A stretch of 60,484 nucleotides of DNA from an uncultured Bacteroidaceae bacterium (GCA_964592815.1 CAZQGE010000002.1:1-60484); one strand, 5' to 3'; shown: positions 1 through 22,539, numbered from the stretch's first letter. Notes: a model not told the origin generated them from the letters alone. Translations and numbers: made by a program.

Positions 1-1
1 A

Positions 2-3000
2 AAACTTATTGTTCCTCTTGAAGAAAGATTTAGCAAAATTACAGAAAACAACGGTGTAAATTATAGACAAAGCACTAATGGCGATTATGCAAAGATTGCA
101 GAATCCACAATTCCTTATGCAATTAAGGATTACAAACTTTACAAGAAATCTGGTGAACAATATACGCAAATTACAGCAAAAGATTTTGTTGCTGGCACAA
201 CGTATATTTTTGTAGATAACATAGCAAAGGAAGTTCAATACCTCTGCGTAAAAGAAGAAGGATACACAAAGACAAAAGAAGGCAATCTTGTCAACGTCGT
301 AACAAAATACAATCAATTAGGTCAATATATGGTTGGCTTGGGCATTGATATTGGCGCGGCTAATTTGAGTTTGAAGATTGGCGCATTGGGACTTGAAATC
401 GGAAATGCAAAATCTATGTTGCCGAGCTACATCAAAAATCAAAAGAGCCACGACGGCACAACAAACGTTACGGTTGTTCCTTATGATGAAACCACAATTA
501 CGGCAAATATCTCTGTTGAATTAGATATTTCTGCAACGGCTGGAAAACTTAACATTGGCAAAATTCTCGGCACAATTTTAGGCGACCTTGACGGTGTAAA
601 ACTTCAAGTTCCGTCAGAAACAATGCTTGATTCCTCTGTCGTCAAACTGCGCTTAGATTTGCAACTGCTTATTGATTTGTCAGATTTGATGAATTCTCAA
701 CTTATTCTTAAATTGGTTGGAGTAAACAAGTACGGCTTCGATAAGTTGATTTTGGGTGTTTATTATTTGCAAGATACCATCTATATTGACGGTAGTTACT
801 TGAATATACCCAAAATTAGAATTTCAGGCTTAAAGATTTCAAAGATTATTGGCGATTTGATTGGTAAGGTCAGCGGCAGCACCGCTTCTACAACCGAAGA
901 CTTGCTTGACAAGCTCACTTCACGCGCAAACGGCGCAATGACAGCCGCAGGTTCAAGCACGTCCAAACCTTTGGGCGCAATGGTAATTCTTGACAAACGT
1001 AGCTTAACTATTAAAGTTGGCGACGCTCTTATCGAATATATCATTAACTTGCTTTTGAAAGGCTCAATTGATTTGAGTGAAGTTCTTGACAAACTCAATG
1101 CTGAACTAATGATTGAAATGAACTTAGTCAAAGAAGAAAAAGGCGTCAAGAATGAACTTCCTACATTAGGAATAACAGCAGGCATCAATTTCAACGATAT
1201 TAGATATGAAAGAATTGCTGACAGCACAACTTTGAAAAATGCAGCGGCGATGGTCAGATATACGGGAACACCAAGTGAAGTCGTATCTGAATATACTTTT
1301 GCAAGATTTGACAGCAGCAGTATTTTCTATCAATATACTGCAAACGACAAGATTACCAACGACACGGATAAATATAAAGCAGTTGAAGTGTTTAAGGGTG
1401 ATGACGGAAAATGGCACGTTGGTTCAGTTTCTGGTACTATAATCGAAAGCCCAATTTTGTGCCAACTCAAACACTCAAACGTTGGTCTTGGACTTGCCAT
1501 CAAATATTTAGACGTTGAATTTGCTCATTCGCTTGCACCTTTGTTTACTGCTGCAGAACTCAGCGATTATGTAGGCTTGAACAACCTAGAAAAAATATCT
1601 CTAAGTGAAAAAATTGACATCACAACAGGCTTTGATAGCAGCAGTGACATCAATTTGAACGAACTTATTCAATATTTCTTCCCTGACGTTGACCCAAGCT
1701 CGTTACAAGTGCTTATTCAAGCATTGTCTGATAATGGCGGTGACGTTAACCGTAAACTTGAACTTGGTTTGCAACTTGACTTAAAGGTCGGCGCACTTAT
1801 CAAGTATATGAAGCAATACGTTAAAGTCAACGACTCAACAGTTGCCAACGAAAAATTGGCTTCTCTCATCAAGACTTTCAACAAATTGCAAGGCGACGAC
1901 GGAACTGGATATAAGGAAACTGTTTCTATTCTTGACGTAATCGTGCTTATTATGGGTGCGGTTGAAGGCAAGATGAACATATTGACATTGACAGATTTCT
2001 TGAGTTTGTCTATTGAGCTTAACACAATCATCGATAAAGACGGTGACGGTTTGTTCTATCCAGAAGGTGGCGTTGACGACAAGCACCTTATGGTTGGCGC
2101 ATATCTTATTGAAGGCGAATATAAACTTTTGAGTGACAAACCTGAAACTCTCAACAAAGATAGTTTTGACTATATTGCAACTACACAACGTTTTAGCCAC
2201 TATTACAAAGATATGAACGGCGGTTATAGATATGATGCAGACACCAAAGATTATGTTATGGCTGAAAAGTCATTCAAGGGTGTCAGATATTCCTATGACG
2301 CTGCAAACTATTACAGAAATCCATTTGGTGAAGCGTATCGCGTAAACGGCGGATTGTACGTCAATTTGTCTTATTTCAATATGCCTGGCATATATGTTTC
2401 AGATGAAAACGTCAACAACCTTTTGGCGTCCGCTTTGAAACTTAACAACAAAGGCAATTCTGCTATGGAAGCTGGTGATTCTTCTAATGCTTCAACAACG
2501 GCAGATATAACTTTACCATTGCTTTCAGAACAACTCAGCAGCTATTTGAAAGTCTTGCTTTATGGCATCAACTTCACTTCAAATTATCTGAGAGTTTTGG
2601 TTGCATCTGACTTTATCAACCAACTTCTTGGTATGTTGATTAAGGATAACAAGTTGCAGTTCAACAACTTTGATTTTGTAAATCAACCATATTTGAGCGT
2701 CAATTACGACCGTCAAGAATATGTTATGATTGCAAGTGCCGAAGGTCAAACAGGCGCGGTTTTGCAAGACAAAATTTATAATATTGCAGTTGAATCTACA
2801 AAAGAATTGGGTGATTACGTCATCAATGCAAACGGCGAGTTCGTTTACAAGGTAAGCCTTACTCCTGACGAATTGAATACTTATGGAGGCAAATTCTATA
2901 AGACTTACAAATCGTACATCAAAGTTGGTGGCGAATACATTGCTTACGCAAAAGCTGGTTCATACGAAAAGGCAACTTGTGATAAGGTTGCAGGACAAAA

Positions 3001-6000
3001 CGTTCCACAATTCTTCTATCACGATGGTACAAATTACGTTGCCTATGGTTCTGCATACAGCATTGTCCACAAACTTTATAGAACAGAGCCTTTGATTGGT
3101 TTGCAGATTTACGTCTTCAACTATGAACTTGGCATCAACATTGGTATGCCAAAATTGGTTGCAACGTCTTATGATTACAAACCTATTTCTGGTCAACTTT
3201 TGACAAATAACAGCGATTACCCAATGGGAATCTACACCGCTAAGAATGGATATTTGAACGGCGACGTTTTCAAAACTACTTATAGACGTGTTGAAATGCC
3301 TCGTGAAATCTATTCAAGTGAAAAACCTGTTGAGTTCAAAGAAGGTAATGCAGCATATAAGAAGTATTACGTCAATGCTGACAGCAGCGGAGAATATTAC
3401 ATTGATGGCAAATACCTTATTAAATTTGCCGAGGGTGAAAAGAAAGATTATCACGGAACAACATATAGTTTAACTCAAACGGCTAATGCGGGAACAGTAT
3501 ATTACGACGTATATTACACAAGAGCTAGCGGCACAACCAACGACAAAGAAATCCTTGACAAGAGAAATGAAATTTTGGCTGACAATGCAAATGGAAAATA
3601 TGTCAACTCTGATAATATCTTCTACGTTTCAGCTATTGTTCGCGGTTCATTCAGTATGGACACAAACTTTGACTTTGATAAATATTACCGCGCTTATAAC
3701 TCTGCTACCGACCAAGGAAAGCAACGCTATACATATACGCACGGTTCTTACGTTGAATCTGCGACTGGAAACTTTGTTAAAGCTGAAAACTATGAAGGCG
3801 TAAATGAATCGTTGAGCGAAGTTTTGGGCGGATTGTTGGGTAACTTGACAGGTAAATTTGTTTCACCTGCCAACTTTACCGCAGACATCAGCTTTGAAAT
3901 TAAACTTAACTTGGCATTTGAATTGAACTTTGTTCCATCATTGAATCTTAGAATCCGTGACATTGACTTAGCTATTGATATGTGGCGTCGTGAAAATGAC
4001 GCAAAAGACGGCTCTGACGGTTCTGTAACTCATATGATTGGTATATACTACGACCACGACACAGAAACTGGAAAAGCTGGGGCATATATTGATTTGAGCT
4101 ATTTGTTAGGACCAGACGCTAAGATTTATATTGATATGAGCGATATGCCTGTTGAAACTCTGTTGTCAGAATTATTAAATGGCGTATTCAACAAAAAACC
4201 AGCTACTGGCGCGGCAACTGCGGCTGACCCCGAAAGTGTTATTCCAATTGCTAACCCCAATATGGTAAGCGCATTCCTTAATATCTACTCAAATGCTATT
4301 GCCATAAATATCGCCGCAAGTTTTGTCAAGATGCTTGTTGGTATGTTGTTGCCTGAACAAAGCAACATTATCAACGCATTGCCAAACTTCAAGGTTTATG
4401 TAAAAGCAAATATGAACCCCTATGATTTGATTTTGGGCTTAGTTTTGTTTAACGAACAAGGCACAAAAGCAGTTTTGAAGGGCGAATTGAAGTTGGAAGG
4501 TTTCAACGGAGTTCCTTACGTTTCTTCTGAATTAGACTTTGGTACTGAAGAAAAATATGCAGGAAAGGTTGATTACAACGACCCCAACTATATCTTCTAT
4601 TACGCAAACTTTAAGCGTGACGACGTAAACGGCACATATTTTAAGTACGACAAAGGTACTTACGGTGATATTTCAGTTGCCATTCCTGGAAAAGGATACA
4701 CGGAAAAAGTTGACCAAGCGTTCAACACAGAAAGAAGATACAAGAAGGGCGACTATAAGTATGAAGCTGTTGTTGAACCAACGCTTTATAGTGGCAAGAT
4801 TTATCGTGAAACAACTCCTGGAAGCCAAGAAATGGTTCCTCTCAGCAACGATTTTGTATATCAAACATTGCTTGAAAAAGGAATTATAAATTCATATAAG
4901 AAAGGACTTTACATCAAAAATAACGATGGTTCTTACTCTTATAAATCAAAGATGCAACTTGTCGGTTTCATTGGCTATCGCGGAAGCGTCTATTCATTGA
5001 AAGATGGTAAGGTCGCAAACAGTCAAGCTGCTTCTGATTACGTGAATTTGGGCGAGTATATTCCTATGCTCACCTCAGGCACAATCTTTAATTACTTCCG
5101 TGCAAATGAAAACACGCTTAATGTAAACTACAACCAAAAAGGTTCTATCCACATTGTTGACGAAAACGGCAAATTCGTTCAAGTTTCAATGCAAGAATTG
5201 TTGAATTACGGCAAATATAAGAAGGTTGCAGACGGTGTGAACTTCAAGTATGTTCCAGTAAATGGAAATACGGAAGCAAGTGTTGACGGCAAAGTATATA
5301 AGAGAGTTGAAAACTTTACAGAATTTAGTAAGTTTATGGATTTGAATTTGGACGAAATTATGAATACTCCAAACTTCAACATCAACACTCTGTTGTCAAG
5401 TCTTGCGGAAAACGTTGAAAACATCGGCGTTGGCGCGAATTTGAATTTGCTGATGACATTGGACGACATCATCAACTGGTCTTATCAACTTACAAAGTTT
5501 GTAGAAACAAACGAAATTGGAAACAAGATTTATTTCTTGGCAACTTCTTTGCAAGAACAAAGTAAGACAAACTTCAAGAGTAAAATTGGCATTGACTTGT
5601 CACTTAAAGCATACCTCAACGTTGGAAACTTTGTTTATAACCTCGGTGGCAACATCGGTAAGATGCTTGCTGGAACAAAACTTTATATAAAGATGGTTTA
5701 TAACACGAACTTCCATGGTGAAGAAAATGCTGTAACACAAATTTATGCAGAGATTTCGGAAACAGGAAAACTTGCTGTATATCTTGACTTGTCTGATATA
5801 AGCAGAATTGTTGGCTTGGGTGACTTCTTTGGCAAAATGAAAGTTGAATTAGATTTGGCTAACATTTTGGCTGGTGGAGATTTCGCTTTGAGTTCAGGTG
5901 ATAATGCTGTAACAGCTGCTGCAAGTTCAACGGGTCTTTTGCCACAAAATATTTGGAACATCATAGAAATGGCATTTGGAAGCCTCGTGTTTGCAAATGA

Positions 6001-9000
6001 TACTCTGTCTATCGGTTTGCGCAGCGACTTGTTTGCCAAGATTTTGACACAATTTGTTCCTGACGGAAGTATGGATAGCATTGCAAAATACTTACCAAAA
6101 CTTCGCGAGACGTTTGACCACTCAACGTCTGGATTGAGCATCAACTTTGCTGGTGATTCTCCGTCTATTGAGTTCAACTTGGGCTTTATTACAGGTATTG
6201 ACCAATTTAATGAAATTACAAGTTTCAACAAAACTGACGGTACTATTGACTATGCTGACACTATCGCAAAATACAACAAAGTCGGCGAAAAATTTGTTTT
6301 GTCACCAGATGGAACTTATTACAAATACGCAGATGAAAGCTGGTCGATGCTTGAATACGCTCAACCAAAATTCCAAGGTTTGAGATACAAATTGACCACA
6401 CAAACGGTTGACGGAAAACTTCAAGAAGTTTATACAGTCGTTGGAGAAGGCAGTTCTTTAGATAAAAACGACGGTATGCTCTATAAGGATATTGAAAACG
6501 GTTGGATTTCAAAAGATGTCAATGGTGAGTATTATACCTTTAATACTGCCACACACAGAAACAACTACTTTGCATCATATTCAATTCAAGAAGACGTAAA
6601 TGGAACTTTGTTTGCAGCAGTAAACAAAGAGGGTGAAATTCTTTACTACACGTCTGAAAAGCCCGCTTTGACAAACGGCAAACGCTATAAGATTGCAGAG
6701 CAAAGAAACAAAGATTATTCATTAAACTATTATTTGGATAATCAAGTTTACAGAGCCTTTACACAAACGACAGTTGCCGAAAAGCAAGCGTTTATCGAAA
6801 ATAACTGCTTCAAGTATTTCGACGGATATAAAGTGGACGTAAACGGTTGGTATTATCTTGACGGTGCAACTTATAAGAGATTTGTTAGTGCTGAACAAAA
6901 GGCAGAGTACATTGGTACTAAATTTACAAACACAAGGGTTGGTAGATACATTAAACTCGGCGACTTTAATATGATGCTTAAGATTGGCGATTTGGCATTG
7001 AGCGTCAACCAAAACATTGACAACCTCAAAGAAGAAACAATCTTCCAAAATGCCTCAGAAGCGGATTATACAAACGTTGTAAAATCAAAACTTGAATTGT
7101 CAATTTCTATTGACCTCTCTGTTTATGGCGCAGAAAAGCCTGACAACTATGCTGACCTTTCGGGTATTCTTGATATGATTTTGGCATTTGCTGCACCAAG
7201 TTTGGGACTTAGCGGTTCAAGCCTCAAAATCTTGATTGACGGTTTGTTAGGACACGAAAGCGGTCCAACTTATAGACTTGACCTTAAAGCATTCTTAGAT
7301 TTGGAAGACTTCAGCAAAACAGAAGTTTTGCTTGAACTCAACAAGTACAGAATGTATAGCGGAGTAACTCCTATACCTGTTAGCAATATAATAAGGGCTT
7401 ATTTGGCAAACGATAGCATCTATGCTGACTTAACAGGTCTTTTAGGAGCAGATTCTAACGCTAAACTCAAAATAAGCGGTTTGGGCTTGTCATCTATTTT
7501 GTATAAAGCACTTGGCAAAGTCTTAGGCAGAGAAGCAACAGTTGGAGAGAACAACGCTCAAACAGCAGGACACGCTAACTTGCCGACTATTGACGGCAAC
7601 AAGGACGAAGCTCAAAAGAACTTTAACTCTTTGGACGTTGCATATATGATTATTGCCGTAAATCCACAAAAGATTTGCTTGCAATTCAATTTGGAAATCA
7701 TAAATGCAATTTACAGTAAGATTTGCGCATTAAGAGGTGAAGAACCTAAGTTTAAGTTGCCAGACCTTGGAGAAATTTTCATTTACGCTGACTCAACTGT
7801 TCCTAATATCACTGGTTCAGGACTCGACAGCACCGATAAGAAATACAGAGGCGGATTTATGGTTAAGTTCAGCGACGGTTTCTATTTCTCTGCTGATATA
7901 AATACCTTAGCTATAAACAAGGGTGTCGATGCCACTGGTGTCCATAATGCGTATATTTCTCAAACAGAACTGAACAACTACACAGAAGCATTCAACATCA
8001 AGACTGGAGAACTTAAGTTACAAAATATCGGTTTGTCTTTGGGCTTGTCATTTACAATGACGTCAAAAGGTCTGTATCCTGGTGATGGAGAATTTATCAA
8101 GGTTTCAGAAGAAGAAGCAGTTTCTTTGGCTGCGGCTGAAAGATATTCTATGTCAACTGTTACAGTACCTAGCGACCCCAACATGCTTGCTGATGGAATT
8201 TATGCTGTACAATCTGGTAATAAATTTGTCAAAACTGATAAGAGTAAACTTATTGCTGGCACAACTGCGTACAAGTTTACGCAAGATGCAGCAGGACTTT
8301 ACAAGTTCTTTGACTACCACGCAAACAGTATGGCTGGTTGGATGAATAAGACTTTGGGTTCATTGTTGTCAGGCGTAGGACCTTTTGGTCAATTTGAAAC
8401 TTACGCAGGTACTTTCAAAACTAACGATGATGGTACAAAAGATTATTCAGTTTACAGCGGCAAACTTTATTACAAGAAAGACGTAACAAAGAATGACTAT
8501 ACACTTGTTGAAAACAATGCTAGCGTTAACGCAACTTTGCAGCTTTATACGTTTAAGGCTGCGGAAATCAATATGATTTTTGCAAACAAAGCTATACGTG
8601 TTGACGTTCAAGTGGATGCAACAATCAATTTGGGCGCAATTTTGAAATATGGTATTGCGGGTATTCTTTCAAGCGACATTTCATTGAAGGTTACTCACGG
8701 CGAAGCAAAAACGACTCTGCTCAATATCTATTATCTTGGTTCGTCCAGCTTGACAAAGACAGGCAATATTTACACCTTGCAAAACAATTCAAACGGTTTG
8801 TTCTCTGATGCTATTTACATCGACGCAACAGGCTTGGGCATTGGGAAAATTAAATTCCAAGGACTTACTGGATTGTTGGGTGCAAATCAACCTATGAATA
8901 CTGCATCTGATAGAGCACAATCAACAGCTGATATTAAGTCAACTTCTGAAAATGGTACAACGTCTGCTGATAACGGAGCATTGAACCCAATGTTTATCGA

Positions 9001-12000
9001 AATCACAATGCAAAACGGCAGAATTGGTCTTACAATCAAACGTTCAGTAATTGATACAATATTTGCTATAGCAAACTTGAAATTGCCTTTCGAATTGCCA
9101 GATATTCAATTTGTAACCCTTAATATGAACTATGATTCTAAGGGTGGAACCGGCTTTAAGTCTTTAGAAATCAAGGCAGAACTTGACAAAGTCGGAACAG
9201 GCGCAGATATTGCAATTTCGCCTATCTCCCTTGACCTCAAAAACGGAAAGGCAAACAAGACTGCAATCTACAATGAGATTAAGTCAGGTTATGCTGGTGT
9301 AACTTTCTCTAAGACTGCGGGAGCTATGTATCTTATCCAAAACATTTTGGATAACTTGGCTCCAAACATTGCTATTCACATTGATAAACGTTCTACAACA
9401 ACTTTCTTCCGTGGTACGTTCGGCGGCAGCCAAATGTCAGCAGTTGAAGGTAGAGCAACAAATGAAGGCTCAGCAACACTCGTGGTTCAAAGAAGAAGAT
9501 ATTCAACCGTTGATAAGAAATTTGATGATAATAATACAAATTATCCGTATCGTTTGATTGCAGATTTGTCAGCAAATTTTGATGGTGTAGCTTTGGGTGT
9601 TAAAGTTGTCATCAGCGCAAATGATATATTGCTTACAGGTATTCAACTTGAATCAGGATTGCAAGCTATTTTGAACGCTGTTAACGTTATTCCAATTAGA
9701 GGTGATAACGGCGCTCCTATATTAGACCTTATAAAAGGAACTGGCGACAACGACAGATGGGGTTATCCGTCTAATGAAACAGCTCAAAGTACGGGCGATG
9801 GCGGTAATGCGCTTTCTGCTGGCGAAGGTTCGTTTACTTATAATGACCAAACAGGTAAATATAACTATTCACCGGATTTGACAGGCTTAATTAAAAAGCT
9901 CGACTTGAATTTATTTACTCCTTACGGATACTTGCCTTACTACAACGGTATGGGCGATATTGACGTAAATAGCGCGGACAGTACAAAATATATGTCTATT
10001 AAGGTAACTTTTGACAAAGACTCTTTTAACGAATTGTTGATTATGCTCTATGTCATTATCTTAGGACTTATGCAAGAAGCCACAGATGCTAACACGGTTG
10101 GTGTTCAATACTTTGTTGACATAAGAAAAATTATGAACCAAACTGACGGCAATACTTGGCGTGATGCTGTAAACGCAAAGCTAGATGTTGGCAACGGAGA
10201 TATGACTGTTAGCACAAAGAACCAATATAATCAAATTATGAAAGCGTTTGCAACAAAGAAAACAACTGCTGAACGAGTTGAGTTTATGAAGATAATTATT
10301 CCTTCAATTCCATTCTCACTCATTCAATGGTTGATGTATGACGTTGTTAAATTGTCAAAATCAGTTATGGTTTTGGCAGGTATAGCAGGAAACACGCTTG
10401 GCAACTTAGGTAGATTGCCTGCAAGTATTTTGCCTATACCTTTTGCAACGCAAGACGCTTATGCAAATATTTATATTGACCTTGACCCAACAAATGCAAC
10501 GTACGGACTTAGCGCAGACAAGAAGATGCAACCTGGCATTCAAGCTATTGAATTGATGATAAACTGCTCTAAACCTACGGCAGGTGGCACATTAGTCAAG
10601 CCTGCGGCGGCTAGCACGCAACAAGAAAACAGCTTGAAGAATGAATACTTCTTCTTGCGTATCAATCCGTATGCTAACGAAAATGCTAATGCAGGCAAGT
10701 TGCTTGACTTTGCAGAGTCTCAAACGGCTGAGAAGGTATCTGGACAAGTTGACCCACCAACAGAAATCATAATCAATGACCCAGCAAAGAGAGAAGGTTA
10801 TGCTAAGTATGGTGAAAGACAAGTCCCAGTATTGTTGAACAACGAGTATTTCTCGAACTCAACTTTGTATCCGCAAAAAGCAAAAGTAACGTTTACAAAC
10901 GGTTCAAACAGTCTTGGCGACCCGAATAACCAGAACGAAAACACCAAAGGTACGCAAATTATTTGGGATTCTTCTTCTGTTGATTTGACGTCAAGAGATG
11001 ATAATGGAATTGCGGGATACGTCTATGGTTATGCGTTGAATACTGTTCTTTACGCTATCCCTGTAAGAGTTACAGATAAGTTTATGCTTAACAACGTTTA
11101 CTCCTACACAAATAACGGCACAGGTTGGCAACAATCAACAATTAGAGTTGATATGCATAACCCTGAAAGTACGTCTTTGCCTGAACTTGCCAGAATTAAG
11201 TTCAACGGCGGCGGAACTTGGACTTTTGCAAACGCATATAAGAACAAGTCTGATAAAGCTATGAATGCAATTCTTGACTATGGCAACCGTAGCTTGGAAA
11301 GCAATCATATTGTTGAGACTGTTTACAAACTTGTTGACGGAAAATATTACGCACTTACTTTAAGTGAAATGAGCTTGTATCGAGGCGAATACTATTTGCT
11401 TGAAGATGCATATTTCAAAGGCGACGAGACAAACGGAACTTATTACGTTAAGAATGACGGTGACAGAAAACTCTACACCGAAGACAGCACAGTAGGCGGA
11501 AGCAAATATTACCTCAAACGTGGCAAGATGGTAAAACAAGAAGGTAATTTTGACGGCAGAGCTAAAGTAATTTATAACAACTTGCTTGACCAAAAAGGTA
11601 AGGCTATTACAAATTACGCTAATGCCGATAAAGGAAGATACGTGATTGTTCCTGCTTATCAAACCGCATTGCAATATACAACTATAAGTGATGTTGAACT
11701 TGTCAATTTCAAAGACTACGTATATAAGAAAGTTGGCGAAACATACGTTCGTATGACTGGTGCAGAAATTAAGACTTATACTGGTCAAAAGTATAAAGTT
11801 TTGACAGAAAAAGTTGGTGACAAAGAATATTGTGTACTTGATTTCAGCAAGTTGCCAAAAGGAAACGCATTCCCTGTTGGAACAATTAGTTGGGACAATA
11901 AGAACTTTGTTTATGGTTGGACAACTGAAAGTGTTAGCATCGGTTTGACGTATCAATGGGGTCTTTCGGAAACTGTAAAAACAGAAGTGTACCTCCCTGT

Positions 12001-15000
12001 TGAAAGCTACAAGATTGAAAGTGCGTTGAAATTTAGTACTGTAGATGGTTCTAAGTCTATCAACTCATTCAGTAATATCGACCCGTTGTCACTTCCATTC
12101 GACGGTAGCAGCGTATCATTGATGGAATACGTTGATAGTATGAAGAAGTTGGACGGCAGATACGTAAGTGGAAAAGGATTTACTCTTGACGTAAAGTGGG
12201 ATTTAACTGAACTTGAAAAAGCAATGAACACAATCAAGAATTCTGCTGGCAAGTTTGATTACTATAAGGGCTTGTCTTGCAACGTTAAGGCTTACGTCGG
12301 ATATAACTACTTCAAGAACGACTATGTGACAGATAACAGCGGAAAGGTAATTTACGGCTTTAATGGCACAGGTTCAACAGACGCAAACTTTGTTGACCCA
12401 GGTTACATTGCACAGGTTTTGGACGTTCGTATTAGTCTTGCGAGCAGAGAATTTAGCTCTCTTGGCTCAAACAGCTTTGTTATTGACCCGTACAATGAAA
12501 ATACATACCTTGCAAACGGCGAATTTAACAACAACGTATTCGACGGTCAAAAAGTCGGAATTTACTTCAAGGGTAACGTTAAAGAACAAGAATACACCGT
12601 CGGGGACGCAGCCTCTGCTATAACCTTTGATTTGCCTTATGTTTTGAATGCTGACGGAACTTACGAAAAAGGTTCAATCAATGTTTCTAAGTTAAGCTAC
12701 GCAGGTTATTCAGATAGTCTTGACAGATATATTAAGATTGTCATTGGAAATGCTTCAAGTGGACAACAAGTAAAATATGTCAAACTTAATTTCTACTCAA
12801 TGACAGCGTCAACAACAAACTTAACCATTGAAGATACGTTCAACCCTGAATGGTACAATGCAAGCCAATATGACAAGCTATCTGTTTACTTCAAAGCAGG
12901 CAAAGGCTTTATGCACAATATGGACATAAACTGGACTGATGCGAACGGAAATAGACTTGTCAAATACTACACAAATTCTAAGTTGACAAAAGAAGTTTCT
13001 GACATAAGTAGCGGCGGCGTATATTATGCAACCGTAACTGCTAACGTTAAGAATGCTGCTGGCAACGCTATCGGTAACGTAATTGATAGCAATGGAAAAC
13101 AAGTTTCTCAAAGCATTACTCTTAAACTTATTGTCAACGAAAAGCAAATAAAGAGAGCGGCAGATGGCTCTGTAACTTCACACAAAGTGTTATTCTTGAA
13201 TACACCTACTGACATTTACGGAAACGGCGAAATAGCTACCAACCCAATTTATACGACGGCATATCTTGCTGACCTCAACAATTATACGTCAGACATTTAT
13301 GCTCCAGTTGGTAATGGATACAGCTTGAATCCTTTGTTTATAAACGATAATACGCTTACAAACAACTACTTCAAAGTCGGAAATTGGGGCAATGGCAAGA
13401 CGGGTACGGCAGTTAAAGTCGAACTTGCAAACGGAAACGTCGAACTTGCCTACGTAAAAGAGTGGACAGTTGATTCCAGATTGGCATTCAATACCCTTAC
13501 TGGTGGTACGTATAACGTCAGCCTTGTAGTTGGTTCTCAAACTATTACTACAACTTTGAAGGTTGCCGATTACACAGTTTCAAACTATACGTTGGGTGCA
13601 TCTTCGTTGACTGCGGTTGAAGGTGATTTGTTCAGCTTCAATTCACAAGAAAAGTGGAATTTGCCGACAAAAGCTAACTTGGTTTTGAACACGGGCGCAA
13701 CTGTTGCAGACGTTGACAAGATTAAACTTAACGATGTCGCAATCACTTGGTTGGATATGTCCGCTCCTAACGCTTTTGAAACTGACACAGTTGGAAACTT
13801 CAAGTTTATTAGACGCTCTTTCAAGGTGTTCGCAGGTACGCCTTACGAACAAACCTTTGAAATTAGAATTAGACTTGACGGCATCAACAATGAACTTACA
13901 GGTCATACGCTTAACAGTTTGACGCCAGAATTATCGTTGACAGACAGCAGTTGGAAATTGCCTGAAACGGCAACAGTAAATTATGCAAACGGAACGACAA
14001 GTAACAACGTTTCAGTAGTTTGGGACAGCAACAGCTTGCCTAACGCTGCTGAAATGAAGGCTGGTACATTCACAAGAAGTTATACGCTTGCTGGCGGAAT
14101 TTACAGCGGTTCGGTAACGTTTACAATTGCAAACTTCACAATGACGGATTGGGACGTTAACAGCGCAGCTGATGGAAAGACGTTTGCTTATACTCTTACG
14201 GCAGACAAGTTCTACAAAGGTTTGCCGACAACTGTTAAGATTAACGCAACTACTGACGCAACTATTACTTGGAATAACGTAACTTACGGCAACGAGGGCT
14301 TGACCAATAAATTAGTTGTGGCAACTTTAGGTTTGGCAAACGGCAATGTGGATATTGACGTTAACCTAACCGTCAGGGCTGCAACGTTCAATTCATTGAT
14401 TAAGGAAAGCGTAATATTTGACGTGTTCAACCCCAATTTTGACGGAGTTGGAACGAACTTGTTTGTTTCTGGAAGTGAAGTTGACGTTAAGGTAAACAAT
14501 GGCGTTGCTGTTGAAAACGGAAAAGCAACTATTTATTACAACAAAGCGAAGTTATATGAAAACCTTGTTTCCAAACTTGGAAAGAGAGTTAGTGTTCCTA
14601 TGACAATCGACTATGGCTATGGCAGAGAAAGTATTGAAGTTGAAGTTCAATATATTGACAGAAGTGCGGAATATCCGAAGAGCTTGGATTTGCGCGCGAT
14701 AGTCCTTGATACGTTTGAACATTCAGATTTCAGTTATTTGCCAAATGTTGTCTCGATGGTTACAGGTAACGGCGATTTGTTTGATATGTACGTCGAATGG
14801 CCAAGTGCAAGTTTCGTCGATAAGTACAAACTAAACGGTTATTATAACGGAGCAAACCATATGGTTAAAGCCAGCTACTACGTTGTTGACAATGATATTG
14901 GCACTTACGGAATAGCGGGTAAAGACGACCTTAACAAGAATATCTATAAACTTATTTCTGAAATTGAAGGTTATAGCGGAGATAAATATGTCCAAATAAC

Positions 15001-17605
15001 ACAAATGGTTAATATTCCAATCACTATAATGGCAAACAAGATAAAATCTGTTAATTTCTATTATGGTGACAACCCCAACTATAAACTTGCTTCAATTGAA
15101 AACAGAATAATAAAAGAAGTTCACACTTATGTAGGACAAAACGCAAATAAGAATTACTTTGAAATTGAATACGGCAGATTGTCAAAAATTCCAACCGACT
15201 TCAACTTCTTCAACCCGTATGCCTATGACAGAGATGAACTTCCTAAACAAGTATTAGTTAAGTTCGGCGACAATAATTTGGAACGTAAGTATTATGCTAA
15301 GTATGTTCCAAAAACAGCAAAAGACACATTTGACAACAGTCAGATAGTTTCAACTGCCGACAAGACCTATAACGTTATTGTAGAAATTTACAATAACGCA
15401 GGTTTGACAGGAAAAGTGTTGACGTCGTTTGAAATTGAAATAAATATTTCTAGACTTGAACTGACTGAAAACAACTCTGACCTTACGTCAAAGTACCTCG
15501 ACTTTGAGACTAAGCCAAGATATACGTTCGACGTATATTCGTCGTACGCTGACAGTATGTTTGTTACAAGCTATTATGAAGGTGGCGTATTCAAGTCCAA
15601 CTATATGAGCGAAAACGGCATACTTAAAGGCAACACAGAAAAAGGCGTCACAAACTATATTGGCGGACACTTTGTCAAATATGGTGACTGGGTAGCCACA
15701 GAACAAGGTATGAAGTATCTTGCTGATGGTTCGTCACTCTACAAGTTGTTGGGTGAAGGTTCAACCACGTACTACTACAACAAGGTCGGCAAGGATTATC
15801 AATACTCTACTGTTCTTGACGTAGCAAACAGTTATGTATACGCTTATATTGATACGCAAGTGTTAGAAGTTAACAACTGGAATACTAAGTGGAAATTAGG
15901 TGGAACAAGCTACGGTTATGACAGCACCCACGCTGTGATAACGGCTAGTGTTGCAGGAATGTCTGTAAATGGAATGAAACTGAACAGCGCAAGCGAGAAC
16001 ATAAAAGTTCAAGTTAAGTTGGTTGGTAAGAAATTTACGACTGCTGACTTTGACACATATCCAAACACGACAGTATTCAACGGAGTAAATAACTTTGTTG
16101 TAAACTATGACTCGTTTGGAAGCGTCAACTTGTTTGAGCGTCAACCATACACTGCTTTTGCTGGAACACGCTATAAGAGGAAAGTTGACAGAAGTTTCTC
16201 GATTGACAATACTCGCGGTCAATATGCAAAGTACACAGGCATAAAGTATTCAAAGAACGTTAGCACAAATACGTTTGTTGAGGATGTAAACGGTACTTAT
16301 GGACTTCAAAACGGTCAGTACGTTGCGCTTGATGAATATTTGGGTAATAGTTATATCCGACTTGAATACTACTATGGCGTACGTTATTCTAAGTACTCTG
16401 ACGGAAAATACTATGTAGACAGAAATGGACTTTACGGTATCAACGAAAAACTAGATTATTATCAATTATCAAAACTTGAACTTGGTAAGTACACTTATTT
16501 CCCGATGAATTACAAACTCACGGGCAAAGACGGTACTGATATCCTTGTACCTATTACTTGGAATTTTGATACAGTTAATATTTCGTATAAGGGCGGAACG
16601 AGTGAGTTCAGCGCATTGGTCAACGCAAACAATGAGTACAACTTTGGTTCTAACGATATTGGAACGCAAACGTTGAAGTTCACGATTAACGTTACACCAA
16701 GAACTGTTGTTAAGACTGATAGCAATATGTGCGGTATAGCAACAGAAGGAACTGGTGTTGGACTTGCAACAGCTGGCACTCAAAACAGCACGCTCAGAAA
16801 TATGGAAGGCTATGCTGGACATATCACAAAGGACGTTTCTGGCAACTATGTAATTCCGTCTGGACAAACTTATATTTATCCTTACGACTATGTACAACGT
16901 GATTTGCCGAACTACATTGACGTAATCATCAAAGACGGTGCAAGCAGCGTAGTTAAGAGGTTCACAGTTGGTGGCGGTGACGGAACAGTTACAAACAATG
17001 CAGACTATGAAAACACAAACAAGACGTTTATGTTGAAATGGAACTTGTCAGAATTCAACCCGACTTACAAAGGTGGCATAATACACTTGATTGCAGTTTT
17101 GATTGGACCAGACGGCTCACAACAAAACTTGAGAATTCCGTTCTTGGTAAATCGTCAAATGGCAAGTCGTATTGAGTCTATCGGAACAAGAGCGTCTGTT
17201 GAAAGTTTTGTACGCGACGTTGCAAATGACGGTGCAGTAATAGGAAATGCTTACGAAGTAAAGAGAAGTGTTGCAATCTCCTACAACTTGCCAACAGCCT
17301 ACAACGTAACATTCAACAGTTTTGCTCCAACCAAAGTCAATATGGAAAAGAACAAAGTGTTAGAGTGGAAGGAAATCAAGAAGACAAGCGAACAGGTTGG
17401 AAACGCGATAACTGCTGCACAAATAGACCAATACACAGCAACGATTGCAAATGCTGACAAGTACAGTAAAGTGTTCAACTATTTAAGTGTTGATATGCCT
17501 GCAAGCTATGACAAGACAAATCCGACACTTGGATTTAGCGGAAAAGCAATAATCCGACTTGGAACAAATCAATCTATTACAACAAACTTTACAGTAATAG
17601 CATAA
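2..17605 (+). CDS. Giant repeat-rich, Cys-poor, probable extracellular/surface protein. 5'-partial: at least 5,867 aa visible and the N-terminus lies upstream of the window.
   Basis: The ORF track starts at the first Met (329). Hand translation of the same frame from nt 2 (KLIVPLEERFSKITENNGVNYRQS...QLGQYMVGLG) has no stop, so the frame is open to the window edge. Stop TAA at 17603-17605. About 10 Cys in more than 5,700 aa. Rich in Y/N/K/G/D. Confidence 0.9.
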   Translation, partial: KLIVPLEERFSKITENNGVNYRQSTNGDYAKIAESTIPYAIKDYKLYKKSGEQYTQITAKDFVAGTTYIFVDNIAKEVQYLCVKEEGYTKTKEGNLVNVVTKYNQLGQYMVGLGIDIGAANLSLKIGALGLEIGNAKSMLPSYIKNQKSHDGTTNVTVVPYDETTITANISVELDISATAGKLNIGKILGTILGDLDGVKLQVPSETMLDSSVVKLRLDLQLLIDLSDLMNSQLILKLVGVNKYGFDKLILGVYYLQDTIYIDGSYLNIPKIRISGLKISKIIGDLIGKVSGSTASTTEDLLDKLTSRANGAMTAAGSSTSKPLGAMVILDKRSLTIKVGDALIEYIINLLLKGSIDLSEVLDKLNAELMIEMNLVKEEKGVKNELPTLGITAGINFNDIRYERIADSTTLKNAAAMVRYTGTPSEVVSEYTFARFDSSSIFYQYTANDKITNDTDKYKAVEVFKGDDGKWHVGSVSGTIIESPILCQLKHSNVGLGLAIKYLDVEFAHSLAPLFTAAELSDYVGLNNLEKISLSEKIDITTGFDSSSDINLNELIQYFFPDVDPSSLQVLIQALSDNGGDVNRKLELGLQLDLKVGALIKYMKQYVKVNDSTVANEKLASLIKTFNKLQGDDGTGYKETVSILDVIVLIMGAVEGKMNILTLTDFLSLSIELNTIIDKDGDGLFYPEGGVDDKHLMVGAYLIEGEYKLLSDKPETLNKDSFDYIATTQRFSHYYKDMNGGYRYDADTKDYVMAEKSFKGVRYSYDAANYYRNPFGEAYRVNGGLYVNLSYFNMPGIYVSDENVNNLLASALKLNNKGNSAMEAGDSSNASTTADITLPLLSEQLSSYLKVLLYGINFTSNYLRVLVASDFINQLLGMLIKDNKLQFNNFDFVNQPYLSVNYDRQEYVMIASAEGQTGAVLQDKIYNIAVESTKELGDYVINANGEFVYKVSLTPDELNTYGGKFYKTYKSYIKVGGEYIAYAKAGSYEKATCDKVAGQNVPQFFYHDGTNYVAYGSAYSIVHKLYRTEPLIGLQIYVFNYELGINIGMPKLVATSYDYKPISGQLLTNNSDYPMGIYTAKNGYLNGDVFKTTYRRVEMPREIYSSEKPVEFKEGNAAYKKYYVNADSSGEYYIDGKYLIKFAEGEKKDYHGTTYSLTQTANAGTVYYDVYYTRASGTTNDKEILDKRNEILADNANGKYVNSDNIFYVSAIVRGSFSMDTNFDFDKYYRAYNSATDQGKQRYTYTHGSYVESATGNFVKAENYEGVNESLSEVLGGLLGNLTGKFVSPANFTADISFEIKLNLAFELNFVPSLNLRIRDIDLAIDMWRRENDAKDGSDGSVTHMIGIYYDHDTETGKAGAYIDLSYLLGPDAKIYIDMSDMPVETLLSELLNGVFNKKPATGAATAADPESVIPIANPNMVSAFLNIYSNAIAINIAASFVKMLVGMLLPEQSNIINALPNFKVYVKANMNPYDLILGLVLFNEQGTKAVLKGELKLEGFNGVPYVSSELDFGTEEKYAGKVDYNDPNYIFYYANFKRDDVNGTYFKYDKGTYGDISVAIPGKGYTEKVDQAFNTERRYKKGDYKYEAVVEPTLYSGKIYRETTPGSQEMVPLSNDFVYQTLLEKGIINSYKKGLYIKNNDGSYSYKSKMQLVGFIGYRGSVYSLKDGKVANSQAASDYVNLGEYIPMLTSGTIFNYFRANENTLNVNYNQKGSIHIVDENGKFVQVSMQELLNYGKYKKVADGVNFKYVPVNGNTEASVDGKVYKRVENFTEFSKFMDLNLDEIMNTPNFNINTLLSSLAENVENIGVGANLNLLMTLDDIINWSYQLTKFVETNEIGNKIYFLATSLQEQSKTNFKSKIGIDLSLKAYLNVGNFVYNLGGNIGKMLAGTKLYIKMVYNTNFHGEENAVTQIYAEISETGKLAVYLDLSDISRIVGLGDFFGKMKVELDLANILAGGDFALSSGDNAVTAAASSTGLLPQNIWNIIEMAFGSLVFANDTLSIGLRSDLFAKILTQFVPDGSMDSIAKYLPKLRETFDHSTSGLSINFAGDSPSIEFNLGFITGIDQFNEITSFNKTDGTIDYADTIAKYNKVGEKFVLSPDGTYYKYADESWSMLEYAQPKFQGLRYKLTTQTVDGKLQEVYTVVGEGSSLDKNDGMLYKDIENGWISKDVNGEYYTFNTATHRNNYFASYSIQEDVNGTLFAAVNKEGEILYYTSEKPALTNGKRYKIAEQRNKDYSLNYYLDNQVYRAFTQTTVAEKQAFIENNCFKYFDGYKVDVNGWYYLDGATYKRFVSAEQKAEYIGTKFTNTRVGRYIKLGDFNMMLKIGDLALSVNQNIDNLKEETIFQNASEADYTNVVKSKLELSISIDLSVYGAEKPDNYADLSGILDMILAFAAPSLGLSGSSLKILIDGLLGHESGPTYRLDLKAFLDLEDFSKTEVLLELNKYRMYSGVTPIPVSNIIRAYLANDSIYADLTGLLGADSNAKLKISGLGLSSILYKALGKVLGREATVGENNAQTAGHANLPTIDGNKDEAQKNFNSLDVAYMIIAVNPQKICLQFNLEIINAIYSKICALRGEEPKFKLPDLGEIFIYADSTVPNITGSGLDSTDKKYRGGFMVKFSDGFYFSADINTLAINKGVDATGVHNAYISQTELNNYTEAFNIKTGELKLQNIGLSLGLSFTMTSKGLYPGDGEFIKVSEEEAVSLAAAERYSMSTVTVPSDPNMLADGIYAVQSGNKFVKTDKSKLIAGTTAYKFTQDAAGLYKFFDYHANSMAGWMNKTLGSLLSGVGPFGQFETYAGTFKTNDDGTKDYSVYSGKLYYKKDVTKNDYTLVENNASVNATLQLYTFKAAEINMIFANKAIRVDVQVDATINLGAILKYGIAGILSSDISLKVTHGEAKTTLLNIYYLGSSSLTKTGNIYTLQNNSNGLFSDAIYIDATGLGIGKIKFQGLTGLLGANQPMNTASDRAQSTADIKSTSENGTTSADNGALNPMFIEITMQNGRIGLTIKRSVIDTIFAIANLKLPFELPDIQFVTLNMNYDSKGGTGFKSLEIKAELDKVGTGADIAISPISLDLKNGKANKTAIYNEIKSGYAGVTFSKTAGAMYLIQNILDNLAPNIAIHIDKRSTTTFFRGTFGGSQMSAVEGRATNEGSATLVVQRRRYSTVDKKFDDNNTNYPYRLIADLSANFDGVALGVKVVISANDILLTGIQLESGLQAILNAVNVIPIRGDNGAPILDLIKGTGDNDRWGYPSNETAQSTGDGGNALSAGEGSFTYNDQTGKYNYSPDLTGLIKKLDLNLFTPYGYLPYYNGMGDIDVNSADSTKYMSIKVTFDKDSFNELLIMLYVIILGLMQEATDANTVGVQYFVDIRKIMNQTDGNTWRDAVNAKLDVGNGDMTVSTKNQYNQIMKAFATKKTTAERVEFMKIIIPSIPFSLIQWLMYDVVKLSKSVMVLAGIAGNTLGNLGRLPASILPIPFATQDAYANIYIDLDPTNATYGLSADKKMQPGIQAIELMINCSKPTAGGTLVKPAAASTQQENSLKNEYFFLRINPYANENANAGKLLDFAESQTAEKVSGQVDPPTEIIINDPAKREGYAKYGERQVPVLLNNEYFSNSTLYPQKAKVTFTNGSNSLGDPNNQNENTKGTQIIWDSSSVDLTSRDDNGIAGYVYGYALNTVLYAIPVRVTDKFMLNNVYSYTNNGTGWQQSTIRVDMHNPESTSLPELARIKFNGGGTWTFANAYKNKSDKAMNAILDYGNRSLESNHIVETVYKLVDGKYYALTLSEMSLYRGEYYLLEDAYFKGDETNGTYYVKNDGDRKLYTEDSTVGGSKYYLKRGKMVKQEGNFDGRAKVIYNNLLDQKGKAITNYANADKGRYVIVPAYQTALQYTTISDVELVNFKDYVYKKVGETYVRMTGAEIKTYTGQKYKVLTEKVGDKEYCVLDFSKLPKGNAFPVGTISWDNKNFVYGWTTESVSIGLTYQWGLSETVKTEVYLPVESYKIESALKFSTVDGSKSINSFSNIDPLSLPFDGSSVSLMEYVDSMKKLDGRYVSGKGFTLDVKWDLTELEKAMNTIKNSAGKFDYYKGLSCNVKAYVGYNYFKNDYVTDNSGKVIYGFNGTGSTDANFVDPGYIAQVLDVRISLASREFSSLGSNSFVIDPYNENTYLANGEFNNNVFDGQKVGIYFKGNVKEQEYTVGDAASAITFDLPYVLNADGTYEKGSINVSKLSYAGYSDSLDRYIKIVIGNASSGQQVKYVKLNFYSMTASTTNLTIEDTFNPEWYNASQYDKLSVYFKAGKGFMHNMDINWTDANGNRLVKYYTNSKLTKEVSDISSGGVYYATVTANVKNAAGNAIGNVIDSNGKQVSQSITLKLIVNEKQIKRAADGSVTSHKVLFLNTPTDIYGNGEIATNPIYTTAYLADLNNYTSDIYAPVGNGYSLNPLFINDNTLTNNYFKVGNWGNGKTGTAVKVELANGNVELAYVKEWTVDSRLAFNTLTGGTYNVSLVVGSQTITTTLKVADYTVSNYTLGASSLTAVEGDLFSFNSQEKWNLPTKANLVLNTGATVADVDKIKLNDVAITWLDMSAPNAFETDTVGNFKFIRRSFKVFAGTPYEQTFEIRIRLDGINNELTGHTLNSLTPELSLTDSSWKLPETATVNYANGTTSNNVSVVWDSNSLPNAAEMKAGTFTRSYTLAGGIYSGSVTFTIANFTMTDWDVNSAADGKTFAYTLTADKFYKGLPTTVKINATTDATITWNNVTYGNEGLTNKLVVATLGLANGNVDIDVNLTVRAATFNSLIKESVIFDVFNPNFDGVGTNLFVSGSEVDVKVNNGVAVENGKATIYYNKAKLYENLVSKLGKRVSVPMTIDYGYGRESIEVEVQYIDRSAEYPKSLDLRAIVLDTFEHSDFSYLPNVVSMVTGNGDLFDMYVEWPSASFVDKYKLNGYYNGANHMVKASYYVVDNDIGTYGIAGKDDLNKNIYKLISEIEGYSGDKYVQITQMVNIPITIMANKIKSVNFYYGDNPNYKLASIENRIIKEVHTYVGQNANKNYFEIEYGRLSKIPTDFNFFNPYAYDRDELPKQVLVKFGDNNLERKYYAKYVPKTAKDTFDNSQIVSTADKTYNVIVEIYNNAGLTGKVLTSFEIEINISRLELTENNSDLTSKYLDFETKPRYTFDVYSSYADSMFVTSYYEGGVFKSNYMSENGILKGNTEKGVTNYIGGHFVKYGDWVATEQGMKYLADGSSLYKLLGEGSTTYYYNKVGKDYQYSTVLDVANSYVYAYIDTQVLEVNNWNTKWKLGGTSYGYDSTHAVITASVAGMSVNGMKLNSASENIKVQVKLVGKKFTTADFDTYPNTTVFNGVNNFVVNYDSFGSVNLFERQPYTAFAGTRYKRKVDRSFSIDNTRGQYAKYTGIKYSKNVSTNTFVEDVNGTYGLQNGQYVALDEYLGNSYIRLEYYYGVRYSKYSDGKYYVDRNGLYGINEKLDYYQLSKLELGKYTYFPMNYKLTGKDGTDILVPITWNFDTVNISYKGGTSEFSALVNANNEYNFGSNDIGTQTLKFTINVTPRTVVKTDSNMCGIATEGTGVGLATAGTQNSTLRNMEGYAGHITKDVSGNYVIPSGQTYIYPYDYVQRDLPNYIDVIIKDGASSVVKRFTVGGGDGTVTNNADYENTNKTFMLKWNLSEFNPTYKGGIIHLIAVLIGPDGSQQNLRIPFLVNRQMASRIESIGTRASVESFVRDVANDGAVIGNAYEVKRSVAISYNLPTAYNVTFNSFAPTKVNMEKNKVLEWKEIKKTSEQVGNAITAAQIDQYTATIANADKYSKVFNYLSVDMPASYDKTNPTLGFSGKAIIRLGTNQSITTNFTVIA
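773..10678 (+). repeat. Seven divergent protein-level super-repeats (period about 1.4-1.7 kb, or 470-580 aa) inside the giant CDS.
   Basis: Conserved cores at about 773-1065, 2348-2646, 4079-4357, 5771-6063, 7412-7738, 8807-9084 and 10458-10678. Each core has three parts. (i) An IY(I/A)D-L..L.....KI.I.GL motif: TIYIDGSYLNIPKIRISGL, GAYIDLSYLLGPDAKIYIDM, LAVYLDLSDISRIVGLG, SIYADLTGLLGADSNAKLKISGLGL, AIYIDATGLGIGKIKFQGLTGL, ANIYIDLDP. (ii) A small-residue linker with A-x-T/E-A-A/G: GAMTAAG, SAMEAGD, GAATAAD, NAVTAAA, NAQTAGH, RAQSTAD, KPAAAST. (iii) A hydrophobic segment. No near-identical DNA repeats. Confidence 0.75.
10850..17602 (+). other. C-terminal array of at least 12 Ig-like modules (Big_4-like 'LP-x-x-V-x-V ... 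V-x-W' pattern) with Tyr-rich inserts.
   Basis: Examples: YPQKAKVTFTNGSNSLG..IIWDSSSVDL; WNLPTKANLVLNTGATV..VAITWLD; WKLPETATVNYANGTTSNNVSVVWDSNSLP; GLPTTVKINATTDATITWNNV; ELPKQVLVKFGDNN; DLPNYIDVIIKDGAS; NLPTAYNVTFNSF. The protein ends ...NQSITTNFTVIA with no LPXTG and no hydrophobic tail. Confidence 0.6.
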
Positions 17606-17613
17606 TGACAAGA

Positions 17614-17641
17614 TATGAGCAGGGTGAAAGCCCTGCTCATA
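17614..17641 (+). terminator. GC-rich 11-bp hairpin just after the giant CDS. No canonical U-tract.
   Basis: TATGAGCAGGG-tgaaag-CCCTGCTCATA, followed by AATAAAAG rather than a T-run. Confidence 0.4.
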
Positions 17642-22032: not shown

Positions 22033-22539
22033 TTACATAATTCTGCAAAGAGCACAAGCTATAACCATTCCTAAGAACGTCGCAAATAAAGAAACAGGAA
22101 TTGCATAGCGCAGTTTTTTAGCTTTGCAACCAGAAAAGTACACCGCTGATATATAAAATATTGTTTCAGTTGCCCCAGATATTACTGCCGCACACCTAGC
22201 AGGATAACTGTCAACTCCATATTGTTTTATTATGTCTTCCAAAAGTGCGATAACTCCGTTGCCTGACAATGGTACAAGAAAAACTAATTCTGTAATTTCG
22301 GACGGAATGCCCAACCAAGATAATGGAATTGAAAACCAACCCGAAACAATTTTTGATAAGCCACTTGCCTTAAACAATTCAATGCAAACAAATATTGCCG
22401 CGATATATGGAAAAATTGTTTTTACCAAAGATAAACTTTCTTTTGCTCCGTCCAAAAAACAGTCGTAAACTTTGACTTTTTTGATAAGACAATAAACTAT
22501 TAGAATTATGAGAATTGCGGGCAAGATATAGACTGTCAT
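22033..22539 (-). CDS. spmB: Spore maturation protein B (nucleoside-recognition-domain membrane protein).
   Basis: 168 aa polytopic protein. ATGA overlap with the upstream spmA-like gene. The sequence and its pairing are typical of SpmA/SpmB. Confidence 0.7.
   Translation of the reverse strand: MTVYILPAILIILIVYCLIKKVKVYDCFLDGAKESLSLVKTIFPYIAAIFVCIELFKASGLSKIVSGWFSIPLSWLGIPSEITELVFLVPLSGNGVIALLEDIIKQYGVDSYPARCAAVISGATETIFYISAVYFSGCKAKKLRYAIPVSLFATFLGMVIACALCRIM

Follow-up and report, generated by a model that had tools for sequence, protein, structure and literature searches.

A giant, probably lipid-anchored protein built of cryptic super-repeats in the core genome of uncultured Christensenella-like gut Clostridia

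We identified the 3' part of a gene for a giant protein that is real, native, encoded in the core genome and under purifying selection. Its relatives form a small orthologous family that is restricted to a lineage of uncultured Christensenella-like gut Clostridia. The window (the whole stretch of DNA analyzed, 1-60484) covers 5,867 codons of the gene, and the complete protein is estimated to carry about eleven super-repeats, six of them in the window, that are too diverged to be recognized by pairwise comparison. The function we favor, with confidence only slightly better than even, is that of an extended, lipid-anchored protein for cell-surface contact or adhesion. About 99% of the protein's length is invisible to all of the domain and structure libraries searched.

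Results

Integrity of the open reading frame

Frame 2 of the + strand is free of stops from nt 2 to 17602, and is closed by a stop codon at 17603-17605. The translated portion comprises 5,867 aa (649 kDa). A listing of ORFs that requires a start codon places the beginning of the gene at ATG 329 (329..17605). A preliminary reading made from the sequence alone (hereafter the sequence-only reading) noted that the same frame is open from nt 2, as translation verified; the 5' end is truncated by the window edge. Also accurate was its description of a nearly Cys-free protein rich in Y, N, K, G and D. We counted 10 Cys (0.17%), and the other residues make up 7.0% (Y), 8.25% (N), 7.35% (K), 8.25% (G) and 6.3% (D) of the protein. 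The peptide quoted in that reading, GLGIDIGAANLSLKIGALGLEIGNA, is located at aa 112-136.

Stop trinucleotides make up 5.1% of the window, and the chance of 5,867 open codons is P ~1e-133. The GC content of the gene is 38.7% and its GC3 is 37.5%, versus 39.0% and 35.4% for the other genes of the window, and codon frequencies of the two sets correlate with r = 0.87. Thus, we conclude from the match in GC, GC3 and codon usage that the gene is native.

Along its whole length, the window protein aligns collinearly with independent orthologs. Genome GC at 46 ortholog loci spans 32-61%, and at each of them the frame runs without interruption from the edge of the locus to the stop, over distances of up to 21 kb. 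Stops or misassembly within 1-17605 had been named as grounds for rejecting the protein; we found no stop and no rearrangement relative to the 46 orthologs. In the only closed long-read chromosome, at 92-20576 of L044 (CP091723.1), the ortholog is present as four ORFs that overlap and use different frames. This split is the sole observation that favors an artefact, be it a misassembled, chimeric or decaying gene. The L044 gene is broken by three frame shifts such as long-read indel errors typically cause, and this is probably their origin, with pseudogenization of that copy as the less probable cause. Only one of the three lies near a homopolymer, so the indel-error explanation is not proven. 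For the window, an artefact is effectively refuted by the improbability of the open frame, the native codon usage, the collinearity with 46 independent orthologs that are themselves open, and dN/dS values far below 1.

Distribution, divergence and selection

In a scan by alignment that took one genome per species, the gene was located in at least 52 species-level genomes. Nearly all of these are MAGs from the gut that carry the labels Christensenella sp. UBAxxxx, uncultured Clostridia/Clostridiales or Firmicutes CAG:238, and lineage assignment of the carriers rests on these labels. The hosts include humans, mice, rabbits and sheep/ruminants. Some carriers (L005-L007, L010, L025-L027, L040 and L052) are titled Bacteroidaceae, Bacteroides, Phascolarctobacterium succinatutens or Butyrivibrio crossotus despite synteny of the Clostridia type. 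These titles are inconsistent with the shared gene and gene order, and the bins are probably mislabelled. One locus bears a strain name, Firmicutes bacterium TM09-10, a label to be read with the same caution.

A profile of the six window repeats was searched against 1.84 billion representative proteins and returned only 29 matches. Each of the 29 proved to be a collinear ortholog or a contig fragment of one, with 23-39% identity over the segments aligned by BLASTP. The sole name given to any member is "hypothetical protein [Clostridia bacterium]", and literature searches returned no description of the family. When the N-terminal 600 aa were used as a single-sequence query, no related loci were recovered from genomes or metagenomes; alignments of orthologs did find loci.

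The genes of full-length relatives are ~22-24 kb long. On the closed 1.65-Mb long-read chromosome, the ortholog exceeds 20 kb and occupies at least ~1.2% of the genome. Identity to orthologs at the same loci is 27-34% for the giant protein and 43-73% for the products of neighboring genes. Conservation peaks in the repeated modules described below, and the Tyr-rich segments are hot spots for indels (occupancy down to 0.17-0.5). In seven close pairs, dN/dS is 0.07-0.27. When the gene is divided, the modules have the lowest values (0.03-0.18), compared with 0.05-0.21 for inter-module segments and 0.08-0.24 for the C-terminal part.

The value of dS varies several-fold along the gene. In the pair L002/L053 it is 1.09 in the central region vs 0.2-0.3 elsewhere, and in L011/L015 the corresponding figures are 0.085 vs 0.29. 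Variation was also seen in the pair L006/L007, in the equivalent of window aa 3030-3660. This unevenness suggests a recombinational mosaic within the gene.

The missing N-terminus and the lipoprotein signal

Five orthologs are complete, with lengths of 7,286-7,924 aa and 11-12 matched stretches each. Window residue ~4 aligns to residue ~2409 of one of these (P0001, 7,881 aa), so ~2,400 aa, or roughly five more super-repeats, are missing upstream. This agrees with the earlier placement of the true N-terminus beyond the window edge. From these alignments, the complete protein would have ~8,200-8,300 aa and a mass of ~0.9 MDa.

All five full-length orthologs start with M-[RK]-[RK]-x-K, a hydrophobic stretch and then L-[VA]-A-C, which constitutes a lipoprotein signal peptide and lipobox. 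Using an N-terminal alignment, the same start was found in six metagenome loci, where it lies behind a strong RBS (AGGAGGG). The lipobox takes forms such as ...LVAC-N and ...LAAC-N, which satisfy the pattern [LVI][ASTVI][GAS]-C. These observations cover the five full-length orthologs and the six metagenome loci, and the N-terminus of the window copy lies upstream of nt 1. By extension from orthologs that are ~25-34% identical to it, the window copy is very probably lipid-anchored as well. In that case, we know of no larger bacterial lipoprotein.

In addition to the lipobox Cys, the first 150 aa of the five full-length orthologs (P0001-P0009) contain two more invariant Cys. One is inside the signal peptide and the other is in a YDC(T/S)G sequence near residue 146; elsewhere these proteins have almost no Cys.

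No TM segment was detected in the 5,867 aa of the window protein. Its C-terminus, ...GTNQSITTNFTVIA (ending in ...NFTVIA), lacks an LPXTG motif, a TM segment and a basic tail, and the same is true of the orthologs. The orthologs are very acidic (pI ~4.1, net charge of -590 to -790). High acidity is common among secreted and surface proteins.

Cryptic super-repeats

BLASTP comparison of the window protein with itself, relaxed settings included, identified no repeats. By contrast, phmmer searches with 200-aa tiles gave a self-consistent set of weak diagonals, and an iterated HMM converged on a two-part module that recurs six times. The first ~3,030 aa thus consist of six super-repeats of 400-575 aa (Table 1) that share 18-27% mutual identity. 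Profiles built with one repeat left out scored the omitted repeat at up to 92 bits, vs ~30 bits for the best single sequence. In the orthologs we identified 8-11 module copies each, the first of which begins at residue ~80, straight after the lipobox.

Each super-repeat contains a sheet-plus-helix module, which is conserved, and an acidic linker; the third component, a Tyr-rich insertion, is variable. Tyr-rich segments separate the modules. The core motif, phi-Y-phi-[DN]-phi-[ST], is followed by an amphipathic helix (LLxxLLG), then by a linker of Ala, Ser, Thr and acidic residues, and then by a strand-strand-helix element. The Tyr-rich segments are not choline-binding, cell-wall-binding or YG repeats; this identification was ruled out, as they had no Pfam match when scanned alone (E <= 1).

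Table 1. Features of the giant gene, its product and the adjacent genes. Nucleotide positions are those of the window; residues are numbered from the first codon of the open frame.
Feature	Position	Strand	Description
Giant gene, 3' part	2..17605	+	5' end truncated by window edge
Super-repeat 1	2..1201 (aa 1-400)	+	End of a Tyr-rich segment; module A aa ~104-240, module B aa ~250-353; core IYIDGS aa 260
Super-repeat 1 linker	932-952 (aa 311-317)	+	GAMTAAG
Super-repeat 2	1202..2656 (aa 401-885)	+	Module A aa 485-611, Tyr-rich insertion aa 612-776, module B aa 777-881
Super-repeat 2 motifs	aa 785; aa 829	+	Core LYVNLS (aa 785); linker NASTTAD (aa 829)
Super-repeat 3	2657..4366 (aa 886-1455)	+	Long Tyr-rich segment aa ~900-1269, then module; core AYIDLS aa 1361; linker GAATAAD aa 1403
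Super-repeat 4	4367..6091 (aa 1456-2030)	+	Tyr-rich aa ~1500-1800, module A aa 1859-1955; core VYLDLS aa 1926; linker NAVTAAA aa 1968
Super-repeat 5	6092..7726 (aa 2031-2575)	+	Tyr-rich aa ~2080-2299; complete A+B module aa 2297-2580; core IYADLT aa 2473; linker NAQTAGH aa 2518
Super-repeat 6	7727..9106 (aa 2576-3035)	+	Best-conserved block of the family, YYLGSS...IYIDATGLGIGKIKFQG; core IYIDAT aa 2938
Conserved non-repeated central region	9089..10981 (aa 3030-3660)	+	19 invariant columns over 47 orthologs; no family or PDB match
C-terminal region	10799..17602 (aa 3600-5867)	+	Weak internal domain repeats; no C-terminal sorting signal
Big_4 bacterial Ig-like domain	13946..14074 (aa 4649-4691)	+	Only recognizable domain; 29.8 bits vs cut-off of 22.1
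Perfect 11-bp GC-rich hairpin	17614-17641	.	9 nt past stop; A-rich tract next, no U-tract on + strand
AEC/Mem_trans transporter	17697-18740	+	Between giant and SPFH genes; same in 16 loci, 43-70% identity
SPFH/Band_7_1 protein, 376 aa	18819-19949	+	Three C-terminal zinc ribbons; in most of 52 genome loci, 56-73% identity
Zinc-ribbon protein, 353 aa	19972-21033	+	Syntenic downstream in most of 52 genome loci, 44-56% identity; with SPFH gene at ~40 other loci, e.g., L037 19147-21246

Within the linker, each of the six window repeats has an x-A-x-T-A-x motif 34-51 residues past the core; its form in the orthologs is SEA[VILM]TA[AD]. Over 94 module sequences (two paralogous modules from each of 47 species), the Ala positions of [E/D]-A-x-[T/V]-A are 96% and 90% conserved within a linker that is otherwise low-complexity and variable. 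The small residues at alternate positions of the motif resemble those of peptidase cleavage sites. Its conservation and recurrent placement would suit a polyprotein precursor that is cut or decorated at Ala-x-Thr-Ala to yield ~11 module subunits that assemble on the surface. However, no protease or modifying enzyme could be linked to the locus, and a short docking strand or helix, left unresolved by AF2 (pLDDT <50), would explain the motif equally well. We consider processing of this kind to be very unlikely.

Predicted structure of the module

AF2 modeling of 761 aa from an alignment of nine sequences gave an unusable result (pLDDT 45). For one module (aa 90-365, in super-repeat 1), an alignment of 34 module sequences gave a model with a pLDDT of 71.8 (70-93 in the core) and a pTM of 0.56. 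The model consists of eight long strands, the longest of 14 residues, together with three amphipathic helices, all short, and a linker that is disordered (pLDDT <50). In several of the predicted strands, one face is 100% hydrophobic and the opposite face is polar. Foldseek identified no significant neighbor of the model in the PDB (best E 3.5e-3, TM <= 0.2), and nothing significant in a viral library. The ~280-aa module is thus predicted to have a new fold; as it lacks a recognizable neighbor, the structure offers no functional hint.

The model raises the question of whether aligned module faces could form a hydrophobic groove that shuttles lipids, or hydrophobic molecules of other kinds, between the membrane and the exterior, as in TamB/YhdP, VPS13/ATG2 and TULIP/BPI proteins. 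The likeness lies in repeated long amphipathic antiparallel strands, a helix and a disordered loop, in a protein that is tethered to the membrane, here by a lipid. The repeating unit of beta-grooves has this same order of strands, helix and disordered loop. In addition, members of these groups were among the non-significant Foldseek matches: TamAB (9xdd_B; E 0.81, TM 0.10), LBP (4m4d), BPI (1ewf) and SPLUNC1 (4kgo) (E 0.9-1.6, ~1-1.6 for LBP/BPI; TM ~0.1), and a chorein-N protein. These matches are at noise level, however. AsmA, DUF490, DUF748 and Chorein_N had no Pfam or NCBIfam match in the window protein, and AsmA, DUF490 and Chorein_N had no Pfam match in the orthologs. A continuous groove is also hard to reconcile with the flexible linkers and the large Tyr-rich insertions that separate the modules. 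Moreover, the envelope of the carriers is assumed from their phylum to be monoderm, and there would be no outer membrane to bridge to. Overall, a conduit seems quite improbable. Nevertheless, in the model the three short helices do not obviously cover the large hydrophobic face of the sheet, and a different function, in lipid binding or oligomerization, is conceivable.

Central and C-terminal regions

The super-repeats are followed by a conserved, non-repeated central region and a long C-terminal region (Table 1). The latter is probably beta-rich, as judged by eye from the sequence. It contains weak internal repeats that pair aa 4244-4365 with aa 4558-4678 and aa 5290-5400 with aa 5749-5852. 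The Big_4 domain passes the Pfam cut-off in an 801-aa tile and is sub-threshold in a long tile. Six of 37 orthologs have the Big_4 match, and Big_3_4 matched weakly in two orthologs. We did not identify a recognizable array of Ig-like domains (Big_1-Big_13) in the window protein.

Other than Big_4, searches of Pfam, NCBIfam and PHROGs found nothing in either half of the window protein, and three orthologs scanned with Pfam gave no match. A phmmer search of the window protein against all PDB sequences returned nothing at E <= 1. Profile HMMs of the module, the pair of super-repeats 5 and 6, the central region and three C-terminal tiles (built from 37-94 sequences each, and from nine for the pair) matched no PDB sequence. 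The view that no enzymatic motif or named family is recognizable in the first ~3,500 aa therefore held up, with nothing significant there from Pfam, NCBIfam, PHROGs, PDB profiles or Foldseek. Neither was there a full-length match to any characterized adhesin or S-layer family.

Also lacking are the domains expected of several known types of surface protein. SLH, CWB2 and CW_binding_1 were absent from the window protein, from three orthologs and from the Tyr-rich segments scanned alone (E <= 1). FIVAR was absent from the window protein by Pfam, and RCC1, Listeria-Bacteroides, YG, dockerin and LRR repeats had no Pfam match in the family. The sequence-only reading considered the N-terminal architecture to be unlike that of the common adhesin repeat families. 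In terms of domain content this was correct, given the lack of LPXTG, SLH/CWB2, FIVAR and RCC1 and the presence of a single recognizable Ig-like domain, but the N-terminal part does contain repeats, as the six diverged super-repeats demonstrate.

Genomic neighborhood

The gene is located in the core chromosome. Downstream are metG, tatD, ksgA, the S10/spc ribosomal-protein operons, secY and adk, in addition to the genes listed in Table 1. The AEC/Mem_trans gene is a lineage-specific insertion into otherwise conserved synteny. A functional link between the SPFH protein, as a membrane-microdomain scaffold, and the lipid-anchored giant protein is possible. The hairpin that follows the stop codon is succeeded by A-rich rather than U-rich sequence and is therefore not a canonical intrinsic terminator; it is possibly a terminator or a stabilizer of the mRNA 3' end. 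Two ORFs among the housekeeping genes (22536-23183 on the - strand, 215 aa; 27816-28814 on the + strand, 332 aa) had no Pfam match. Scanning of window 1-60484 identified no tRNA and no Rfam match at the gathering threshold, though the window spans ribosomal-protein operons.

The region upstream of the gene was studied in orthologs. At ~9940-10000 of L054-L059, the 5' leader has a conserved TATTA(T/G) box and a GC-rich palindrome (e.g., GGGCGCGCTATATGCGCG), then the RBS AGGAGGG. The palindrome may be a regulatory hairpin or an operator. Further upstream (L054 4228-9575, conserved in L056-L059) are co-directional genes for a GH20 beta-hexosaminidase, a 293-aa protein without an assigned family and a PIG-L-family de-N-acetylase, with a gene for an HGSNAT-like acyltransferase on the opposite strand. 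This cluster of amino-sugar (GlcNAc) enzymes might relate to the ligand or to the modification of the giant protein. Four divergent conserved genes that seemed to occur upstream of the orthologs were ruled out as antisense artefacts of a high-GC region.

The fixed position of the gene beside housekeeping genes in most of 52 genome loci, over a range of 32-61% GC, suggests a constitutive structural part of the envelope, rather than an adhesin, as a further explanation. The protein would then be a lipid-anchored coat, a spacer or an S-layer-like lattice that might organize or protect the wall or determine cell-surface distance. Purifying selection on all regions of the gene is consistent with this role, as are the presence of an SPFH membrane-scaffold gene downstream in most of the 52 loci and the retention of a costly >20-kb ortholog in a 1.65-Mb chromosome. 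The acidity of the protein also fits, given that S-layer proteins are typically very acidic. However, S-layer proteins are normally self-assembling and 40-200 kDa in size, and the giant protein shows no sign of lattice formation. No SLH, CWB2 or other wall-binding domain was found, and divergence far faster than that of the neighbors (27-34% identity) is more typical of exposed interaction surfaces. We regard a purely structural role as a tentative possibility, on the unlikely side.

Discussion

The features of the family can be combined in a model for a contact or adhesion protein. Export would occur by Sec, with lipidation on the lipobox Cys and tethering to the outer face of the cytoplasmic membrane; the signal was identified in the orthologs and is presumed for the window copy. 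The ~eleven tandem super-repeats would build a long, strongly acidic, segmented stalk, the extended geometry of which is conjectural. Each unit of the stalk is predicted to consist of amphipathic beta-strands and three short helices, a flexible linker and a variable Tyr-rich insertion. The central region and the ~2,300-aa C-terminal part, with at least one Big_4 domain, would form the membrane-distal end, which may contact host glycans or mucus, food particles or other cells.

We infer adhesion only from the large size, anchor and acidity of the protein, its single Ig-like domain and its rapid evolution. Most classical adhesins are accessory and vary among strains, and the core, syntenic status of the giant gene counts against an adhesin of that kind. 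Given that the gene is core, syntenic and under purifying selection, rather than part of a strain-variable island, its function is probably a constitutive one in the envelope or in contact. A more radical proposal is that the protein is not an adhesin but a new envelope apparatus. In this case, a ~0.9 MDa lipid-tethered chain of ~11 modules, new in fold and with their hydrophobic sheet faces exposed, would serve lipids and hydrophobic molecules as a conduit or reservoir through the monoderm wall, or would be cut at Ala-x-Thr-Ala into a self-assembling surface layer. We consider this rather doubtful. If true, the apparatus would be a core structure that defines this lineage of uncultured, health-associated gut Clostridia.

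In its working, the contact protein proposed here may be most like the megadalton surface proteins of Gram-positive bacteria, such as Ebh (~1.1 MDa) of Staphylococcus aureus, Embp and SasC. All are very acidic, extracellular, fast-evolving proteins of tandem modules, and are presumed to form an extended fiber. Ebh, Embp and SasC have many near-identical repeats that are recognizable by Pfam (FIVAR, GA, DUF1542), and their anchor is either LPXTG or a TM segment at the C-terminus. In contrast, repeats of the giant protein are 450-570 aa long, ~18-27% identical, invisible to BLASTP and without a Pfam model. Its anchor is an N-terminal lipobox (in the orthologs), with no C-terminal sorting signal, and its gene is core and syntenic whereas those of the Ebh type are accessory. 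Proteins with Big domains provide another point of comparison, given the one Big_4 domain and a C-terminal region that looks beta-rich with weak domain-sized repeats. Only ~40 of the 5,867 residues can be assigned in this way, however, and profiles of the other C-terminal tiles match nothing in Pfam or the PDB.

Giant predicted extracellular proteins have been reported from MAGs of mammalian gut Clostridia, including RCC1-type Oscillospiraceae proteins without membrane anchors and 10,000-30,000-aa proteins with Listeria-Bacteroides, YG, dockerin or LRR repeats (West-Roberts et al. 2023, bioRxiv 10.1101/2023.11.21.568195). The present family resembles these in size class, predicted location and source. 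Unlike those proteins, which are defined by known repeat domains, it lacks such domains and has a lipoprotein signal. New in the present case are the fold of the module, the type of anchor for a protein of this size class and a conserved linker motif.

In summary, giant proteins that appear to be non-repetitive can conceal super-repeats that are visible only to profiles. This gene has been kept intact in at least 52 species, yet is annotated only as "hypothetical protein". Its product is an obvious candidate for how these uncultured commensal Clostridia touch host mucus, particles or partner cells. Knowledge of what the giant protein binds or forms could aid cultivation of these bacteria and explain the host associations of the lineage.
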